Virus record (IMG/VR): IMGVR_UViG_2585427758_000008
From: a virus
Lineage: Duplodnaviria > Heunggongvirae > Uroviricota > Caudoviricetes
DNA: 24,624 bases
Reading direction: 5' to 3' (one strand)
Each line of letters begins with the position of its first letter. Within the stretch, counting starts at the first letter, position 1. The position numbers were made by a program, and so were the translations under genes. Positions 173-8,598 of this stretch are shown here, one piece after another. The notes below the pieces were generated by a model. The model had not been told where the DNA came from and did no database searches. It was given only the letters and a program-made list of their open reading frames with translations.

Positions 173-1285
173 TTAGTTCTTCTTTTCGGATCCGGCACTT
201 CTGGGGGGGAAATCCAGCGATGGCTGGATTATGTCGTCAATTAAAAATGCGGCGAGTAGATTAGCAAATATCCACGCTTTCGCGAGTTCAGGTTCCTTTG
301 CACGCAAAGCATCCAGGTGCAGCAAACTTTTGAGCCGCTTAAAAGCCAGTTCAATTTGCCATCGCAGACGGTAACAATCAGCCACTTGCTCTGCTGAATA
401 TTCATCTTCCGGTAATGATGTTAGCAATAGCACATGGCCCGCTGCTTCCAGCGTTTCCGCCTGAACTACTCGTCCTTTTCGACGATTCTCGCTGAGCAGT
501 CGGGTTTTACTGATTAATGCTTTTTCGGGAGGAAGTGATACGGCAATGAGACGTGCCGGAAAGGGAGCTCCGGCTTTTTTATTACCTGAATTGCCTATCA
601 TTACAGTGGTTTCACCGTTCTTACCGCAATCCAGCCCGCGCAGAAAACCCATCATGTCAAAGCGCATTCCTTCTGCAGTTAACCAGCGCAATCCTCGCCA
701 GTGAACCCGGACGATATAATCAGCTTCTCCAAAAGCAAGTGAGCGGATACATTCGGGACGCGAACCGAATCCCCGGTCAGCAATGCGTATCTCGTCTGCC
801 GTTTGCGCAAATCGGTCCAGCCGTTCAGCGTCTCTGCTGTCGGTTAGCTCAAAATCAGTGAACTGACAGGTATGAGGATCATATCCCATATGTAGTCGCC
901 ATTCAGCGCTGCCGCCCCCGGGCGCACTGATTGCTGTTCCATCGACAAGACGCAATCTCTTTCCGCTTGTACAACCCGTAACTGCGGCGCGTACAGCAAG
1001 TGTTTGTGCGGCAAGTATGCCAAACCAGTCGGCGGCATTCCGCAGCCGCTTCAGGAGAGCCACGTCAGATAATGTTGCAACGTCATGGAGCTGAGCCCAT
1101 GCAGTGACTTCACGTAATGACATCCCCCCGGGGCCGTAAGCCAGCCCCAGACGTAGCAGAGTTGCAGCATCACGAATTTCGCGGCGGCGGGTTAGAGCCC
1201 CGGCATTACGTGCCGAAGTATCCAGTTCTTCGGGCTTACCAATATGGGCCAGAATTGCTGACCAGTTATCGTGAGAGTAATTCAT
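173..1285 (-). CDS. insL: IS186 transposase (IS4-family DDE transposase)
   Basis: ORF track 173..1291 begins at a GTG; the ATG two codons in (1285..1283) gives MNYSHDNWSAILAHIGKPEEL..., the InsL N-terminus as I recall it. It fills the space between the IS terminal repeats. Confidence 0.88.
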   Translation of the reverse strand: MNYSHDNWSAILAHIGKPEELDTSARNAGALTRRREIRDAATLLRLGLAYGPGGMSLREVTAWAQLHDVATLSDVALLKRLRNAADWFGILAAQTLAVRAAVTGCTSGKRLRLVDGTAISAPGGGSAEWRLHMGYDPHTCQFTDFELTDSRDAERLDRFAQTADEIRIADRGFGSRPECIRSLAFGEADYIVRVHWRGLRWLTAEGMRFDMMGFLRGLDCGKNGETTVMIGNSGNKKAGAPFPARLIAVSLPPEKALISKTRLLSENRRKGRVVQAETLEAAGHVLLLTSLPEDEYSAEQVADCYRLRWQIELAFKRLKSLLHLDALRAKEPELAKAWIFANLLAAFLIDDIIQPSLDFPPRSAGSEKKN

Positions 1286-1317
1286 CGGCACGTTAAATCA
1301 TATCAGGCGTAATACCA

Positions 1318-1340
1318 CAACCCTTAAGTTAGCGCTTATG
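1318..1340. repeat. IS186 terminal inverted repeat (window-right end)
   Basis: Exact reverse complement of 2..24. Confidence 0.9.
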
Positions 1341-1709
1341 ACCGGCACCCCCACCATCTGCCACGGCCATACCGGCCCGGATGTGAAACCGGGTATGACA
1401 AAAACCGATGAAGAATGTCTGGAACTGCTGGAAAAGGACATGAAATGGGCCTTTGCGGCTATCGATCGTCATGTTCAGGTGCCGCTTACCCGTGGTCAGA
1501 CGGTGGCGCTGGCTTCGTGGATCTTCTGGGCCGGTGAAACGAACTTTCGCAACTCCACGCTTCTGCGCCTGATCAATGCCGGGCAGATGCCCGCGTCCTG
1601 TAAGCAGTATATCCGCTGGATTTATTCAAAGGGGGTAAAACTCCCCGGTCTTGAGGCCCGCCGTTCGGCGGATGAATGGTTATGTCGCTACGATTTGCCG
1701 AAAGTCTGA
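1341..1709 (+). pseudogene. Phage endolysin (T4-lysozyme-like), 3' fragment interrupted by IS186
   Basis: Translation begins ...TGTPTICHGHTGPDVKPGMTKTDEECLELLEKD, resembling the T4-lysozyme YTIGIGHL motif region. The upstream part that should carry the catalytic Glu/Asp and any signal-anchor segment is absent; the reading frame runs straight into the IS186 repeat. Confidence 0.7.
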
Positions 1710-2384: not shown

Positions 2385-2612
2385 ATGGATGATTCAGATT
2401 GTGCTCAGGCAGTCGTGGAGCGGGCAACAGAACGCGCCCTTTGTGACCGGCTGACACGTAAGTGCCGGGTGGAGGAGACTCCGGGCAGGCGTGTATGCGC
2501 AGACTGCGGGGGTGACATTCCGGCCGCCCGTCTGGTTGCCGTGCCGGATGCCATCCGTTGTGTGAACTGCCAGAGCATCATGGAGGCCGGTCATGTGGGT
2601 CAGCATCGTTAA
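2385..2612 (+). CDS. TraR/DksA-family C4 zinc-finger protein
   Basis: 75-aa product MDDSDCAQAVV... with CADCGGDIPAARLVAVPDAIRCVNCQ (CxxC-17-CxxC); AAGGA Shine-Dalgarno upstream of the ATG at 2385. Confidence 0.55.
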   Translation: MDDSDCAQAVVERATERALCDRLTRKCRVEETPGRRVCADCGGDIPAARLVAVPDAIRCVNCQSIMEAGHVGQHR

Positions 2613-2904
2613 AGATTATGTCGTGCCGATCCTGTCGGCAACAGCCACGGCCGGGGGGATCTTTATGGCGCTGATGCGCAAAACCTTTGTCCCCCGCGAG
2701 GCCTTTGAAAAACTCTCCGACCGGGTTGAGCGGGTGGAGAGCCGGATTTCCGGCCTGCCCACGCAGCAGGAGGTGAACAGACTCAATATCGAAATCACCA
2801 CCCTGCGCGGTGAGCTTAAGGCCACCAATGCCACCCTGAAATCCGTCTCCCACCAGAACGAACTGCTGCTGGAGCAGGCTGTAAGGAAAAAACACAATGA
2901 GTGA
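2593..2904 (+). CDS. Mu gp25-like small membrane protein (one TM helix plus coiled coil; possible lysis accessory)
   Basis: N-terminal hydrophobic segment VVPILSATATAGGIFMALM followed by a heptad-like charged region; GGAGG before the ATG; syntenic with Mu gene 25. Confidence 0.45.
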   Translation: MWVSIVKDYVVPILSATATAGGIFMALMRKTFVPREAFEKLSDRVERVESRISGLPTQQEVNRLNIEITTLRGELKATNATLKSVSHQNELLLEQAVRKKHNE

Positions 2905-3187
2905 TTTCATTACTGAAGATCAGCGTCTTGTCATTCTGCGGTCGCTGGCGGATTACAACGGCGAACTGGGCGAATCCGTGCTTCAGGACTGCCTGGATGA
3001 TTACGGCCACCGCGTGTCCCGCGACACCGTTCACACCCACATTGCCTGGCTTGCTGAGCAGGGACTGGTGCGTAAGCGCACGCTTGTTAACGGTTATTTC
3101 ATCGCTGAACTGACCGGCCGGGGTCAGGATGTGGCGGAAGGTCGTGCCACTGTTCCGGGTGTGAAGAAACCACGCGCAAGGGGGTAA
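2897..3187 (+). CDS. Mu gp26-like small protein (possible winged-helix fold)
   Basis: 96-aa ORF with AAGGA RBS, translationally coupled to neighbours; assigned by synteny only. Confidence 0.4.
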   Translation: MSDFITEDQRLVILRSLADYNGELGESVLQDCLDDYGHRVSRDTVHTHIAWLAEQGLVRKRTLVNGYFIAELTGRGQDVAEGRATVPGVKKPRARG

Positions 3188-3189
3188 CG

Positions 3190-3771
3190 ATGGATAAGCC
3201 GACGCGTGGCCGTGTACGCAAGGTGGATTTGCTCCCCGACAGCATCCGTAAGCCGCTGCTGGAAATGCTGCGTGAAAAACGTCTGACGCAGGTCCAGATC
3301 CGCGAGGAAATCAACCGTCTGATCCGTGAAGCAGGTCTGCCGGAAGAGCAGCAGCTCTCACCGGCGGCCATCAGCCGGGAAGCCTCCCGTAATGAGCTGA
3401 TTGCCCGTAATCTGCGTGATTTACGCGAGCAGACAAAAGCCATGATGGCCGAACTGGGGGATAAGCCGACCGGTGAAACCACGGCACTGATTCTGGAGAT
3501 GTCCCGTGCCCTGATGTACCGCCGTCTGCGTGCCGCCACCGAATCCCTGAACAGCGACAGCGATGTGGATATGCGCCTTATTAAGGACATCCTCCTGTCG
3601 GCACAGCGTGCAGAAAGTGCCGCCGAGCGCAGCATTAAGCGTGAAAAAGAAATCCGGGCCGCATTTGCTGAAGAGATGGCGAATGCGGTCACCGATGAGT
3701 TGCGCGGCGTGGATGGCATGAGCGAGCAGATCGAATTCCGTATCAGGCAGATGCTGCTGGGTAAGGCGTAG
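3190..3771 (+). CDS. Terminase small subunit (Mu gp27-like)
   Basis: 193-aa basic, helical protein directly upstream of the large terminase, as in Mu. Confidence 0.6.
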   Translation: MDKPTRGRVRKVDLLPDSIRKPLLEMLREKRLTQVQIREEINRLIREAGLPEEQQLSPAAISREASRNELIARNLRDLREQTKAMMAELGDKPTGETTALILEMSRALMYRRLRAATESLNSDSDVDMRLIKDILLSAQRAESAAERSIKREKEIRAAFAEEMANAVTDELRGVDGMSEQIEFRIRQMLLGKA

Positions 3772-3781
3772 GAGGTGAATC

Positions 3782-4030
3782 ATGGCAACAGATAACCGCT
3801 CACTGATGAGCAGTGCCCATCAGAAAGCATTCAGTCTTGCAACACAGTTACCTCCTGAAACCATAAAGGTATGTCGTGAGTTGACTGAACTCAGCATTGC
3901 CGGGGAAATATCCCTGGAACAACTGCATTCGCTGCTGGCAGAGGCTGCCACTGATGAGTTGAGCGGCGTGGACGTGATGACTGAAGAGCTTGAGTCCCGA
4001 ATCAAAAGCATTCTGACAGGTAAAGCATGA
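3782..4030 (+). CDS. Small protein whose C-terminus duplicates the small-terminase C-terminal tail
   Basis: Strong RBS (AGGAGG, 7 nt before the ATG). C-terminal AATDELSGVDVMTEELESRIKSILTGKA aligns with the gp27 C-terminus AVTDELRGVDGMSEQIEFRIRQMLLGKA; the underlying DNA is also similar (3950.. versus 3691..). Stop overlaps the large-terminase start (ATGA). Confidence 0.45.
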   Translation: MATDNRSLMSSAHQKAFSLATQLPPETIKVCRELTELSIAGEISLEQLHSLLAEAATDELSGVDVMTEELESRIKSILTGKA

Positions 4031-5694
4031 TGAACAAAGCCAGAGAAACGTCGCCTTCACTGATGCAAATGACGCCTCCCCGCAAAATTGATCTGTCCGG
4101 TGAAAAAGCCCTGCTGGGCGTGGATGTGCCGGACAGCCTTGATTTGCCCGGTGATATGCCGGTGTTTCTGGATTATCAGGCCCGCTGGTTTGCAGATGAA
4201 AGTCAGGTCTGCATCGCGGAGAAATCCCGCCGCACCGGTCTTACCTGGGCGGAAGCCGGGCGTAACGTCATTACTGCTGCAAAACCGAAGCGTCGTGGTG
4301 GCCGCAATGTGTTTTATGTGGGATCAAAGCAGGAGATGGCGCTGGAATATATTTCTGCCTGCGCGCTGTTCTCCCGTGCCTTTAACCAGCTGGCAGATGC
4401 TGATGTGTATGAGCAGACATTCTGGGATCGGGATAAAAAAGAAGAAATTTTGACCTACATGATCCGCTTTCCGAACAGTGGATTCAAAATTCAGGCATTG
4501 TCTTCCCGTCCGTCAAACCTGCGCGGCCTTCAGGGGGATGTGGTGATTGATGAAGCCGCGTTCCACGAGTCACTGGATGAGCTTCTCAAGGCGGCAATGG
4601 CGCTCACTATGTGGGGCGCGCGCGTGCGTATTATCTCCACGCATAACGGCGTCGATAATCTGTTTAATCAGTACATTCAGGAAGCCCGCGAGGGGCGCAA
4701 GGATTACAGCGTCCACCGCATAACCCTGGATGATGCCATTGCGGACGGGCTGTACCGTCGTATCTGTTACGTCACCGATCAGGAATGGTCACCGGAAAGC
4801 GAGCAGAAATGGCGTGATGATCTCTACAAAAACGCCCCGACCCGTGAGGATGCCGACGAGGAATACGGCTGTATCCCGAAAAAATCCGGCGGTGCCTATA
4901 TCCCCCACGCGCTTATTGAAATGGCGATGATCCGCGACATCCCGATTCTGACGTTTGAAGCCCCGGACAACTTCATCAGCCGTGCCGCATGGCTGCGTGA
5001 ATCGGAAGTTTTAACCTGGTGTGAAGAACATTTAAAACCGCTTTTAGAGAAATTAAATCCCCGTTCCCGCTTCAGCTTCGGGGAAGACTTTGCCCGCACC
5101 GGTGACCTGTCCTGCTTTATGCTGCTGGAAATCACCGAATCCCTGGCAAAGCGCGAGGTGTTTCGCGTGGAGCTGCGCAACCTGCCGTATGCCCAGCAGG
5201 AACAGGTGATGATGTACATCCTGACCCGCGTTCCGGCGCTGGTCGGTGCGGCGTTCGACGCCACCGGTAACGGCGGCTATCTGGCAGAGGCCGCACTGCT
5301 GGCCTTTGGCCCGGATATCATCGACTGCGTGATGTTGTCGCCGAAGTGGTACGGCGAGTGGATGCCAAAACTGAAAGCCGAGTTTGAAGATCAGAATATC
5401 CTCGTCGCCCGCCATCAGACCACGCTTGATGATTTGCGCCATGTGAAGGTAGTGAATGGTATCCCGCAAATCGACAAGGGGCGCACGAAGGACCAGAACG
5501 CAACGGCTGCGAACGCCCGCCGCCATGGTGATTTTGCCGTGGCGCTCTGTATGGCAAACCGGGCGTCATACATGGAGGGCTTCATCCTGGATGAATCAGC
5601 CTGTCAGGCGCTACCGGAGCGGTCGCGGGCAATGGAGGGCGGTTATCGTGATGACGATGAGGCATATCATGAATTTGATCGGGGGGGCTGGTAG
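4027..5694 (+). CDS. Terminase large subunit (Mu gp28-like)
   Basis: 555-aa ORF in the expected position and size; contains a DVVIDEAAF segment consistent with a terminase ATPase Walker-B-like motif. Confidence 0.85.
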   Translation: MMNKARETSPSLMQMTPPRKIDLSGEKALLGVDVPDSLDLPGDMPVFLDYQARWFADESQVCIAEKSRRTGLTWAEAGRNVITAAKPKRRGGRNVFYVGSKQEMALEYISACALFSRAFNQLADADVYEQTFWDRDKKEEILTYMIRFPNSGFKIQALSSRPSNLRGLQGDVVIDEAAFHESLDELLKAAMALTMWGARVRIISTHNGVDNLFNQYIQEAREGRKDYSVHRITLDDAIADGLYRRICYVTDQEWSPESEQKWRDDLYKNAPTREDADEEYGCIPKKSGGAYIPHALIEMAMIRDIPILTFEAPDNFISRAAWLRESEVLTWCEEHLKPLLEKLNPRSRFSFGEDFARTGDLSCFMLLEITESLAKREVFRVELRNLPYAQQEQVMMYILTRVPALVGAAFDATGNGGYLAEAALLAFGPDIIDCVMLSPKWYGEWMPKLKAEFEDQNILVARHQTTLDDLRHVKVVNGIPQIDKGRTKDQNATAANARRHGDFAVALCMANRASYMEGFILDESACQALPERSRAMEGGYRDDDEAYHEFDRGGW

Positions 5695-7283
5695 TGGGAC
5701 GCATCATTGATACTGACGGAAAACCTTTCTCCTTTGACCCGGAGATGCAGAGTGCCGCGCTGGATATTCCGCAGATTGCCAGCCGTTATATTGAACATCC
5801 GGCTTCGGGTATCACCCCGAACCGGGCGGCGCAGTGCCTTCGCGGGGCTGAACGTGGCGATCTGATTGCCCAGTCCGATCTGGCCGCTGATATTGAAGAA
5901 AAGGACACCCACCTTTTTGCGGAGCTGGGCAAGCGACGTCTTGCCATTCAGGGGGTGCCATGGAGTATTGAGCCGCCACCGAACGCCAGCGCGAATGAGA
6001 AAAAGGACGCGGAAATGCTCGACGAATATCTGCATTCCGCAGACTGGTTTGATGCCATGCTGTTTGACGCCACGGATGCCATCCTGAAGGGCTATTCCTG
6101 CATGGAAATTGAGCACGGGATGCTCGGTAAAATGCACATCATCCGCGCCATCCGCTGGCGTGACAGCGGGCATTTCTGCCTTAACCCGGATGATTTGAGC
6201 GAACTGCGGCTGCGTGACGGCAGCCATGCCGGGGTGGCGTTTCAGCCTTTTGGCTGGATAGTGCATCAGTCACGTTCACGGACCGGTTACGGTGGCGCAA
6301 CGGGGCTTGTCAGGACGCTTATCTGGCCGTTCATTTTCAAAAACTATTCCGTGCGCGATCTGGCCGAATTTCTGGAGGTGTACGGACTGCCGATGAAGGT
6401 CGGGAAATACCCGTCCGGGGCAACACCGGAGCAGAAAAGCGCCCTGATGCGGGCGGTGATGGATATCGGGCGACGTACAGGCGGGATCATCCCGGCCGGG
6501 ATGTCGCTGGAATTTCAGGCGGCAGCAAACGGGCAGGCCGATCCATTTGAAACCATGATTTCGTGGGGGGAGCGTTCCATCTCCAAAGCAATACTCGGCG
6601 GCACGCTGACCACGGAAGCCGGAGACAAAGGCGCGCGCTCGCTGGGTGAGGTGCATAACGAGGTGCGCCGGGAAATCAGGGATTCTGATTTACGGCAGCT
6701 GGCTGCAACCCTGAACCGCGATCTGGTGTATCCGCTGTACGCCCTGAACACCACGCACACTATTGATATCCGCCGTCTGCCACGTATCTGCTTCCAGACC
6801 AAAGAACCAGGTGATATCACCAAAATCACCAGTGCGGTGATGCAGCTCAGTACGGGGATGGATATTTCTGATCCCTGGATACGGGAGCAGACCGGTATTC
6901 CGCAGCCCACGCCCGGTGAAGCCATATTCCGTGTCCGTCAGAGTGGCAATGAACCGGCTCAGACCGACAGGGAAACACCACCGGAAAAACAGGAAAAAAC
7001 AGAGCAGACGGCGCTGTCAGCCAGACTGCCGGAAGCGAAAAGCACGCCGCGTGATGAACTGGATGATATGGGGGACGCGGTGCCTGCCCGCCGCTTACAG
7101 GAGGCCATCGACCCGGTACTGGAGCCGGTCATTGATGCCATCAGAACGCGGGGGCTGGCGGATGCGCTGGCAGACCTGCCTGCCCTTTATCGTGAAATGG
7201 ATGATTCCCGCCTGATGACGCTGCTCAGTGATGCCATGTTTGCTGCGGAAATGAAGGGGATGCTGGATGACACAGGGGATTGA
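5694..7283 (+). CDS. Portal protein (Mu gp29-like)
   Basis: 529-aa ORF directly after the large terminase; apparent GTG start overlapping the terminase stop (TAGTG); acidic C-terminal region. Confidence 0.8.
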   Translation: MGRIIDTDGKPFSFDPEMQSAALDIPQIASRYIEHPASGITPNRAAQCLRGAERGDLIAQSDLAADIEEKDTHLFAELGKRRLAIQGVPWSIEPPPNASANEKKDAEMLDEYLHSADWFDAMLFDATDAILKGYSCMEIEHGMLGKMHIIRAIRWRDSGHFCLNPDDLSELRLRDGSHAGVAFQPFGWIVHQSRSRTGYGGATGLVRTLIWPFIFKNYSVRDLAEFLEVYGLPMKVGKYPSGATPEQKSALMRAVMDIGRRTGGIIPAGMSLEFQAAANGQADPFETMISWGERSISKAILGGTLTTEAGDKGARSLGEVHNEVRREIRDSDLRQLAATLNRDLVYPLYALNTTHTIDIRRLPRICFQTKEPGDITKITSAVMQLSTGMDISDPWIREQTGIPQPTPGEAIFRVRQSGNEPAQTDRETPPEKQEKTEQTALSARLPEAKSTPRDELDDMGDAVPARRLQEAIDPVLEPVIDAIRTRGLADALADLPALYREMDDSRLMTLLSDAMFAAEMKGMLDDTGD

Positions 7284-8598
7284 TTTAGGTTATGCCGCCA
7301 CGCTTCCCTCAAAAGAGGCGGTAGCATACTTCCGTGTCAAAGGGGCGCATATCAGCTGGAACTGGTTCGAAACAGCCGCGGATGTTCATGCCCGCTCATT
7401 CACGGCAGCAAAAGCGGCACGCCTGGATGTGGTGACCACGTTACAGGCCGAAGTGCAGCGGGCCATTGATGAGGGAATTTCACAGAAAGCATTTATCCGC
7501 ACGCTGACGCCACGCCTGCAAAAGCTGGGATGGTGGGGAAAGCAGATTGTGGTGGACAGCGACGGTAACGCGGAAGAAGTGCAACTGGGCAGTCCCCGTC
7601 GTCTGGCGCTGATTTACAACGTGAACACCCGTGTGGCTTACAATGCCGGGCGTTACACGCAGATGATGAACAACACGGACACGCATCCGTTCTGGCAGTA
7701 TGTGGCGGTCATGGACAGCCGTACCCGCCCGTCGCATTCCGCCCTTAACGGTCTGGTATTCCGCTATGACGATCCGTTCTGGAAAACACACTACCCACCT
7801 AATGGCTGGAACTGCCGCTGCCGTGTGCGGCCATTGTCTCAGGCTCGTCTGGATGCAATGGGGTTATCCGTTTCATCCGGTGAGGATCATCTCTCCACCC
7901 GCAATGTTGAGGCTGGCGTGGATAAACAGACCGGAGAAGTCAGAGAAATGCCGGTGACCACATATTCAGATGGCACCAGAACCATGACACCGGATGTGGG
8001 CTGGTCATATAACCCCGGCTCGGCAGCGTTCGGCACAGACCAGGCGCTGATCCGCAAACTGATCGAGGTGAAAAGCCCGGCGTTACGGGAAATGGTGGTT
8101 CAGGAGATGAACAACAGCCCGGAGCGGCAGCTGGCGTTCCGCATCTGGGCAAAAAACATCATGCAGACCCGGCGAGGTGGTAACGATATCCGCACGCTGG
8201 GCTTTATGACTGAAAGCATTGCGCAGGCAGTGGAAAGCCGGACGGGAACGCCACCGGCCCGCCTGCTGGCGATGAGCGGTAAAAATGTGCTCCATGCAGA
8301 CAGTGTGAAACATCAGAATGACGGCATCGCCCTGATGCCAGAGGACTTCGGGCGCTTACCGGCAATGCTGGCAAAGCCAAAAGCGGTGCTGTGGGACAAA
8401 CGGCACAAAAATCTGATGTATATCGTGGAAAATAAGGATGGCAGTGTGCAGATTGCCGTTAATGCACCGTACAGTCTGAAACGTCAGCCCGACAAACTGG
8501 ATGTGATTGTGAATGCTTACCGGGTTATCAATATGGATAAGCTGAAATCGGATATCCGGGGCGGAATGCTTGAGGTGCTGGAAGGACAAATTGATTAA
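7267..8598 (+). CDS. Mu F-like head morphogenesis protein (gp30-like)
   Basis: 443-aa ORF containing the MuF-type segment PFWQYVAVMDSRTRPSHSALNGLVF...NGWNCRCRV; position after the portal as in Mu. Confidence 0.75.
   Translation: MTQGIDLGYAATLPSKEAVAYFRVKGAHISWNWFETAADVHARSFTAAKAARLDVVTTLQAEVQRAIDEGISQKAFIRTLTPRLQKLGWWGKQIVVDSDGNAEEVQLGSPRRLALIYNVNTRVAYNAGRYTQMMNNTDTHPFWQYVAVMDSRTRPSHSALNGLVFRYDDPFWKTHYPPNGWNCRCRVRPLSQARLDAMGLSVSSGEDHLSTRNVEAGVDKQTGEVREMPVTTYSDGTRTMTPDVGWSYNPGSAAFGTDQALIRKLIEVKSPALREMVVQEMNNSPERQLAFRIWAKNIMQTRRGGNDIRTLGFMTESIAQAVESRTGTPPARLLAMSGKNVLHADSVKHQNDGIALMPEDFGRLPAMLAKPKAVLWDKRHKNLMYIVENKDGSVQIAVNAPYSLKRQPDKLDVIVNAYRVINMDKLKSDIRGGMLEVLEGQID

Follow-up and report, generated by a model that had tools for sequence, protein, structure and literature searches.

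A small gene at the terminase junction of an Escherichia coli Mu-like prophage is probably an in-frame recombinant of a MuF-like module and a small-terminase tail

The DNA analysed here (the window) is a stretch of 24,624 nucleotides (nt) from the IMG/VR record IMGVR_UViG_2585427758_000008, and it is the late region of an Escherichia coli Mu-like prophage. In it, the genes of the small and the large terminase subunit (TerS and TerL) are separated by a small open reading frame (ORF) of 82 codons, ORF82 (Table 1). ORF82 starts with an ATG 11 nt past the TerS stop (3771 to 3782), with GGAGGTG just before it; TAG, GAGGTGAATC and ATG follow each other over positions 3769-3784. The consensus Shine-Dalgarno (SD) sequence AGGAGGTG lies 5 nt ahead of the start, which bears out the strong ribosome-binding site that a preliminary description of the window had given to this ORF. 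The TGA stop of ORF82 overlaps the TerL start (ATGATGA) and, because most ORF82 alleles have the second ATG alone (GCCTGATG), 4030 is the probable start of TerL. Sp18-type and Salmonella prophages without the ORF have TerS coupled to TerL by a TGATG or TAATG stop/start overlap. In Mu itself, genes 27 and 28 are 7 nt apart, so the preliminary description was right that no Mu gene stands there. We found no promoter-like site in 3000-4600, and terminator-like sites around ORF82 were not more frequent than in shuffled sequences, none of them flanking ORF82 on the plus strand. Other readings of the interval were rejected. A read-through or frameshift product of TerS is incompatible with the frame of ORF82, which differs from that of TerS, and the latter meets a TAA 12 nt after the TAG. 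The frame of TerL contains a TAA at 4021-4023, and no slippery site is present. Finally, an RNA element or regulatory site found no Rfam match above noise, no promoter, no convincing terminator and no structure in the RNA around the TerL start.

The C-terminal tail of TerS is present twice at this junction. TerS residues 163-193 (tail A) and ORF82 residues 52-82 (tail B) align in BLASTP without gaps, with 18/31 identical and 24/31 positive residues (E = 3e-10). Their local alignment score of 90 compares with 31.9 ± 5.5 in 2000 shuffles (z = 10.5), none of which scored as high, and the second, diverged copy of the tail that the preliminary description had noticed thus withstands shuffled controls. 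At the DNA level, 3676-3771 and 3935-4030 are identical at 63 of 96 positions; the two copies point the same way and are offset by 259 nt, and no other 96-mer of the window exceeds 44/96. The earlier count of 26 identical bases among the first 31 from 3691 and 3950 was essentially correct. By codon position, the copies agree at 25/32, 24/32 and 14/32. As the differences fall mainly on third positions, both copies were constrained as protein over most of their separation. Tails A and B have a proportion of synonymous differences (pS) of 0.66. Against the TerS tail of Sp18-type prophages, pS is 0.42 for tail B and 0.71 for tail A. For comparison, it is about 0.1 within the set of ORF82-bearing alleles, and the TerS genes of the window and of the related Mu-like locus L021 differ by a pS of 0.21.

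Tail B, which aligns with tail A at 18/31, only partly follows the conserved C-terminal tail of the Gp27-type TerS (...TDELRG.DGMSE.LE.RI...LLGKA). Seven of its residues never occur in a set of 43 distinct TerS tails. Tail B is changed at G14 and S16, which are invariant in the family, and it also departs at the near-invariant R10 (R in 41 of the 43) and at position 28, where the other tails have L or M only. Tail A has unusual residues of its own in its last helix, where I19, F21, Q25 and M26 are unseen in 43 other TerS tails. The residues of its last 13 codons (3730-3768) are unchanged in all but one of 12 alleles, the variation being mostly synonymous. The same 31-residue tail A is present in L021 and in E. 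coli CI5, and this tail type is found only in phages that have, or recently had, a small gene of the ORF82/ORF67 kind (ORF67 is the counterpart in L021), a link that could be either co-adaptation or simple linkage. A third copy of the motif TG.G.GGCGTGGA.G, 87% identical to 3701-3715, is at 4112-4126 in the TerL N-terminus, where the encoded LLGVDV resembles RGVDG and SGVDV of the two tails; this copy is probably due to chance.

The front part of ORF82 did not come from TerS. Its residues 1-51 show no similarity to TerS residues 1-162 (z = -0.2), and hmmscan found no PF11985 match in ORF82 even at E ≤ 10. For this reason ORF82 is not a duplicated TerS 3' end, and a duplication of the last 82 TerS codons can be ruled out. 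When residues 1-55 were compared with 1.84 billion representatives by phmmer, the search returned, besides ORF82 alleles, a 67-residue protein (P0132, E = 1.4e-7) and two weaker matches to repetitive, unrelated-looking proteins. P0132 is 59% identical to ORF82 over residues 1-46, and its C-terminus is its own and unrelated. A profile search extended this relationship to five subtypes of proteins of 56-69 residues in some Mu-like phages of Escherichia, Salmonella and Yersinia, namely P0132, P0135/P0137/P0140, P0136/P0139, P0141 and an unannotated ORF in Yersinia Muvirus Tongde. The ORF82 alleles score 63-85 bits against the hidden Markov model (HMM) of this small-ORF family over about 55 residues, which include the S-A-H-x-K-A-F and S...QL motifs. 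In all subtypes the small ORF starts 11 nt past the stop of a Gp27-type TerS (the window, L021, L026, L030, L032 and L002). The tail-less members stop soon after the conserved S...QL motif, none has the TerS tail, and TerL, wherever it is in view, has an independent start 119-433 nt past the small ORF. ORF82 is atypical in that it has no stop after QL, runs into the TerS tail and overlaps the TerL start. By its sequence, ORF82 is best described as a derived, atypical member of this 'SAHxKAF' family.

The same division of ORF82 is seen in phrog_30922, which ORF82 matches end to end (residues 2-82 on profile positions 2-82 of 82). The tail-less relatives match the first ~55 positions of this profile, and TerS matches positions 51-82 (E = 6.3e-8). 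Between the N-terminal part of ORF82 and ORF67/P0132 the ratio of nonsynonymous to synonymous substitution rates (dN/dS) is 0.25-0.30, and the gene has therefore been real and moderately constrained over longer times. AlphaFold2 predicts three helices for P0132 (predicted local distance difference test, pLDDT, 74). These recur in the model of ORF82 (overall pLDDT 70), where the tail forms a fourth helix that is poorly placed (pLDDT 49-67). Foldseek searches of BFVD and PDB with the two models (pLDDT 70 and 74) returned nothing at E ≤ 0.001, and ORF82 had no match in Pfam, NCBIfam, PADLOC or the functionally annotated PHROG families.

Small genes also occupy the slot between TerS and TerL elsewhere. 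Yersinia phage vB_YpM_Tongde (L002, MT591577.1, 1676-2057) has a 409-nt insertion between gp27 and gp28, its TerS being otherwise identical to that of Mu. This insertion holds the unannotated family member of 58 residues (1676-1852), similar to the MuF N-terminus, and an annotated ORF of 64 residues to which no function is assigned. In Salmonella prophages with the 69-residue family member, the slot also contains a 72-residue ORF on the opposite strand (L026, GCA_020707715.1, 3429-3647), whereas in other Salmonella prophages TerS and TerL are directly coupled.

The family profile led to the N-terminus of the minor head protein MuF. Aligned by hhalign with a profile of 78 MuF N-termini, it gave a probability of 96.7% and E = 4.5e-10 over 55 columns, with family residues 3-57 corresponding to residues 35-89 of the window's own MuF. 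The family HMM scored 16.5 bits on average (maximum 31.9) on 78 distinct MuF N-termini from IMG/VR, against a mean of -3.7 and a maximum of 8.0 on shuffles, and three family members matched phrog_220, 'minor head protein and DNA pilot' (E = 8e-5 to 4e-3). ORF82 had no PF04233 match, and among the family P0136 alone reached 13.3 bits (E = 0.14; cut-off 29.6). No solved structure related to TerS or MuF was detectable by sequence. The histidine of SAHxKAF is conserved in MuF as well and is lost in two ORF82 alleles. By these profile comparisons, the small ORFs are homologues of one segment of the MuF/gp30 minor head proteins, that of residues ~35-89.

Nonsynonymous (N) and synonymous (S) events were counted among 12 distinct alleles of the locus. 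The genes upstream of ORF82 have few of the former (2 N and 28 S in gp26, 6 N and 36 S in the TerS body, 2 N and 18 S in tail A), and TerS is under strong purifying selection. ORF82 has 33 N and 17 S, very similar to the neutral expectation of 35.5 ± 3.2 N at the observed transition/transversion ratio (P(N ≤ observed) = 0.27). Tail B has 8 N and 7 S, with Gly62Ser, Leu70Pro and a variable last residue, and the TerL leader at 4030-4086 has 6 N and 2 S. Variable sites at the three codon positions number 13, 15 and 19 in ORF82 and 2, 2 and 38 in the TerS body, and by the Nei-Gojobori method ORF82 has a dN/dS of 0.46, compared with 0.01-0.04 in its neighbours. Frameshifted and in-frame-deleted ORF82 alleles are also present in databases. 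With N and S counts near neutral, constraint on ORF82 has been relaxed since the fusion. The preliminary description would have counted a lack of coding constraint in relatives against its own reading, and by this test the present ORF82 alleles show essentially no such constraint.

ORF82 has a narrow distribution. A search of 5.8 billion proteins matched E. coli or metagenomic entries only, at 79-94% identity, together with truncated or frameshifted versions. IMG/VR contains eight loci close to that of ORF82, and 50,697 phage records contain no full-length copy. Candidate distant matches in IMG/VR (L012-L014) were dismissed as spurious, as they lie in tail proteins of high-GC actinophages. ORF82 is found in 25 of 5426 complete E. 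coli genomes, each time as a gapless match of 281/281 nt under a coding sequence annotated 'hypothetical protein'. Wherever present, it sits between a Gp27-type TerS and TerL, and the position that the preliminary description had wished to see confirmed in other carriers is thus constant.

Three other layouts are found on the same backbone. About 205 complete E. coli genomes (O157, O111 and O145 strains) have the ORF-less junction of the close, Sp18-type relative. This relative is without exactly 259 nt and has a single TerS tail, the stop of which overlaps the TerL start. Compared with it, the window has a divergent block from ~3680 to ~4085 within otherwise 93-100% identical DNA; the TerL leader is identical at 41-48 of 60 nt, and identity rises to ~98% downstream. 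We also considered that the single Sp18-type tail arose by a recent deletion between two tails. Its protein sequence does look hybrid, but either half of its DNA is ~18-36% different from each of the two tails (hand count), and it is therefore not a recent recombinant. In L021, the TerS protein is identical to that of the window, tail A included, and it is followed by the same SD and ATGGCAACAGATAACCG and by an identical junction, TAGGAGGTGAATCATGGCAACAGATAACCG. Past this junction come the tail-less ORF67 of 67 residues and a spacer of 119 nt, and then TerL, which has its own start and an N-terminal leader longer than that of the window and different from it. ORF67 departs from ORF82 past about codon 35-55 into its own C-terminus, the similarity reaching as far as residues 53-55 of ORF82, an Ala-x-Ala. 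The matching point of TerS is Ala-Asn-Ala, and the tail follows it directly.

The remaining layout is that of E. coli CI5 (L115, NZ_CP011018.1, 1512-1560), which has the same TerS, tail A and SD, then 'MATD' and a deletion. The remnant of its small ORF is 9 codons long (MATDWFSYE and stop) and overlaps a TerL start of the L021 type, and CI5 thus represents a natural deletion of the junction gene. ORF67 with its spacer is absent from complete E. coli genomes and plasmids, where only this deleted derivative was found. The TerL leaders of L021 and CI5 differ from that of the window, homology resuming at PPRKIDL. Phages that are otherwise nearly identical have hypervariable TerL starts, over ~15-20 residues (window 4030-4086; L001, L021, L026 and L027), and conservation sets in abruptly at the same PPRKIDL. 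Since CI5 keeps a 9-codon remnant only and ~205 genomes are ORF-less as compared with 25 that carry ORF82, the small-gene slot between TerS and TerL is dispensable and unstable.

We consider it likely that ORF82 is a lineage-restricted chimeric small gene, which arose by in-frame illegitimate recombination at the TerS/TerL junction and persists as a dispensable scar. The left parent would have had the layout TerS, small ORF, spacer and TerL, as in L021, and the right parent a TerS joined to TerL by a stop/start overlap, as in Sp18-type prophages. The first ~55 codons would then derive from the family of small accessory genes of 56-69 residues with their predicted three-helix fold, and the last ~28-31 codons from the 3' end of a TerS gene of a phage in which the TerS stop overlapped the TerL start, with the joint at the common Ala-x-Ala. 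By this event the small ORF would have acquired a stop/start overlap with TerL, so that ORF82 would be translated from its own SD and terminate on the TerL start codon. The TerS-derived codons may be kept mainly because they are the native translation-initiation region of TerL (AGGT 8 nt upstream and the TGATG overlap), on which TerL translation might depend through ORF82. The tail peptide would be a decaying passenger and the ORF82 protein dispensable, and any residual binding of tail B to TerL would be incidental rather than selected. We infer both this history and the absence of a selected protein function from the layouts, homologies and substitution counts described above. Of the three fates that the preliminary description had proposed for the small gene, it is the fossil that is favoured, the modulator and the decoy less so.

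Several observations weigh against this interpretation. ORF82 is intact, with no stop or indel over 246 nt, in 12/12 alleles and in 25 complete genomes, and all alleles keep a strong SD and an ATG or GTG start. However, ~50 events predict only 1.3 stop mutations, with a probability of 0.25 of seeing none, and for this reason the absence of stops says little. The pairwise dN/dS of 0.46 is below 1, and ~50 substitution events are compatible both with neutrality and with weak selection. Three polymorphisms in tail B (A56V, S72F and K75R) shift it towards residues of tail A, which could reflect either selection for the same partner or gene conversion; if tail A was converted into tail B, a CGA/CGT site between the three was left unconverted. 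We take the tail as the derived state because every other member of the small-ORF family is without it, and the direction assigned to the event depends on this comparison. The RNA around the TerL start is not structured (z = +1.3), which gives no support for an occluded start, and therefore nothing shows that TerL translation depends on that of ORF82. Lastly, no close donor of tail B and the TerL leader was found in the 5426 E. coli genomes, the best match having 82.8% DNA identity.

Alternatively, ORF82 might be a functional packaging modulator or adaptor, the TerS-like tail of which would bind TerL and compete with or supplement TerS. In addition, its MuF-N-like module might contact the partner of the MuF N-terminus, plausibly the portal or procapsid, and thereby tune or bridge motor assembly. 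The C-terminal regions of lambda and P22 TerS do bind TerL, the P22 site being the first 23 TerL residues (PMC9611059), and SPP1 gp7, a MuF protein, binds the portal (PMC5576092). This proposal is also in agreement with the content of the exchanged block, which holds the tail plus the TerL N-terminal leader, with the occurrence in real TerS tails of 24 of the 31 tail B residues (those at the D-E-L, G-x-D, E-x-L-E, R-I and G-K-A positions among them), with the intact ORF and strong SD in every complete genome that carries ORF82, and with the moderate purifying selection on the family of the N-terminal part over longer times. We nevertheless think it unlikely. The present alleles have a near-neutral N/S pattern, tail B no longer has the invariant G14 and S16 of the family or its near-invariant R10 and L28, and one allele has a proline in the last helix, the placement of which is of low confidence in the AlphaFold2 model. 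Furthermore, the tail-bearing form is limited to one narrow E. coli sublineage, all other family members are tail-less, and the homologous small ORF has been deleted in CI5. A more specific, quite improbable version is that of a two-handed adaptor or decoy, with the MuF-N-like module on the portal or procapsid site of the MuF N-terminus and the tail holding TerL. If true, ORF82 would link or uncouple motor docking and TerS-dependent DNA recognition, and the stand-alone MuF-N-like proteins would represent accessory factors of packaging not described so far and would point to a physical link of MuF with TerS and TerL.

The preliminary description had explained the second tail by a local partial duplication of the resident TerS 3' end, which later diverged. 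The two tails are indeed direct repeats at a distance of 259 nt, and the end of the second coincides exactly with that of TerS in relatives. A recombination between two junction types fits better than a duplication in place, because the 51 residues ahead of tail B are unrelated to TerS and homologous to another gene family, that of the MuF N-terminus; because the synonymous divergence of the two tails (0.66) is far above the ~0.1 within the clade, and tail B is nearer to the Sp18-type tail (0.42) than to the resident tail A; and because L021, with the same TerS and the same left half, has a small ORF without a tail copy. We regard the duplication as very unlikely. Equally doubtful, or slightly more so, is the idea that ORF82 is a chance open frame, untranslated, in a spacer left by recombination. 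The near-neutral substitutions, the restricted distribution and the lack of a Pfam or NCBIfam family would all suit it. It is at odds, however, with the consensus SD 5 nt before an ATG or GTG start in all alleles, with a start position conserved over five divergent subtypes, with the family-level dN/dS of 0.25-0.30, with significant profile homology to a real protein domain, and with 246 nt free of stops and indels in 25 genomes.

The surroundings of the junction are those of a Mu-like late region, with the order IS186, truncated endolysin, lysis genes, DUF2730, gp26-like, TerS, ORF82, TerL, portal, MuF and head/tail genes. The endolysin ORF adjoins IS186, and its match to intact relatives starts at 1341. 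Because this gene is 5'-truncated and the early region and Mor are missing from that side of the window (173-1709), the prophage copy is probably defective. Among the related sequences, P0013 (a Logan assembly) is an in-frame gp26-TerS fusion of 291 residues, either a real read-through variant or an assembly error. In the RefSeq entry of Mu (NC_000929.1; L003/L034), gp28, the large terminase, is labelled 'putative portal protein', whereas AF083977.1 has it as the terminase large subunit.

Table 1. Features of the terminase junction and of neighbouring genes in the window
Feature	Position	Strand	Basis or match
IS186, 372-aa (amino acid) transposase	173-1291	minus	
Endolysin, 5'-truncated, 123 aa (166 aa in relatives)	ORF 1338-1709		
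DUF2730 protein, gp25-like	2593-2904		
gp26-like protein	2897-3187		
Small terminase TerS, Mu gp27 family, 193 aa	3190..3771	+	PF11985 Phage_Mu_Gp27, E = 3.1e-33; phrog_426 terminase small subunit, E = 8.6e-55
Tail A, TerS codons 163-193 and stop (MANAVTDELRGVDGMSEQIEFRIRQMLLGKA, stop)	3676..3771	+	Alignment with tail B
TerS stop, Shine-Dalgarno AGGAGGTG and 10-nt gap to ORF82 start	3770..3781	+	Read from sequence
ORF82, probable chimeric small gene, 82 aa	3782..4030	+	phrog_30922, E = 6.9e-52
ORF82 N-terminal part, codons 1-55, predicted MuF-N-like helical module, 'SAHxKAF' family	3782..3946	+	
Tail B, ORF82 codons 52-82 and stop (LAEAATDELSGVDVMTEELESRIKSILTGKA, stop), probable relic of a TerS 3' end	3935..4030	+	
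Overlap of ORF82 stop and TerL start, ATGATGA	4027..4032	+	Read from sequence
Large terminase TerL, 554 aa from the second ATG	4030..5694 (alternative start 4027)	+	phrog_2 terminase large subunit, E = 1e-42
TerL variable N-terminal leader, ~19 codons, exchanged together with the junction	4030..4086	+	
Mu-type portal	5694-7283		PF06074
MuF/gp30 minor head protein	7267-8598		PF04233, E = 9.8e-30, whole protein
MuF residues 35-89, homologous to the ORF82 N-terminal part	7369..7533	+	hhalign mapping

The tail copy, probably a scar, is a tidy case of new in-frame ORFs arising in phage late operons through illegitimate recombination within genes. The free-standing MuF N-terminal segment beside the terminase of some enterobacterial Mu-like phages offers a handle on the binding partner of that segment. 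To our knowledge, neither a stand-alone MuF-N-like gene family next to TerS nor its fusion to a TerS tail has been described before. The block swapped between relatives consists of the TerS tail and the first ~19 TerL codons, the pair of segments that interact in P22 (PMC9611059), and the natural chimeras are therefore a ready set of matched and mismatched tails and leaders for mapping the presumed contact between TerS and TerL of the Mu type.

Compared with lambda gpNu1 and P22 gp3, in which the TerL-binding region is the TerS C-terminus (PMC9611059), tail B is a homologue of the 31 C-terminal residues of a TerS of the Gp27 type, and here tail and TerL leader are exchanged as one mosaic block. 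Unlike these proteins, ORF82 is without the DNA-binding and oligomerisation parts of TerS, it has no PF11985 match, and tail B is changed at family-invariant residues. Proteins that interfere with packaging by acting on the terminase are known, such as Ppi of Staphylococcus aureus pathogenicity islands, which binds phage TerS, and Rpp of phage-inducible chromosomal islands. With MuF/gp30/SPP1 gp7 (PF04233), a domain to which no function has been assigned (PMC5576092), the N-terminal part of ORF82 and its stand-alone relatives share AH..AF..A......D.......(I/L)......G.S......L at MuF residues ~35-89, and both MuF and the small ORF are encoded in the packaging and head module. However, only ~55 residues are in common, and the conserved MuF core (the NGWNCRC region) is absent from the small ORFs. 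ORF82 matches the whole profile of phrog_30922, but this entry has no function or description, and a composite of MuF N-terminus and TerS tail does not figure in its annotation.

Like a moron, ORF82 is an additional small gene that can be dispensed with, is flanked by two conserved late genes and occurs in some relatives only. It differs from morons in having neither its own promoter nor a convincing terminator, and it lies within the operon with a stop/start overlap to TerL. A further parallel is with mosaic 'novel joints', which in the model of Hendrix are made by illegitimate recombination in tailed-phage genomes and survive usually at gene boundaries. Here too identity falls sharply, from ~97% to <75%, at 3680-3700 and 4085 of the window, four alternative layouts share one backbone, and the joint is at a short Ala-x-Ala microhomology. 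The difference is that the ORF82 joint lies inside two coding sequences. In summary, ORF82 is probably a mosaic phage joint that yielded an in-frame chimeric ORF.

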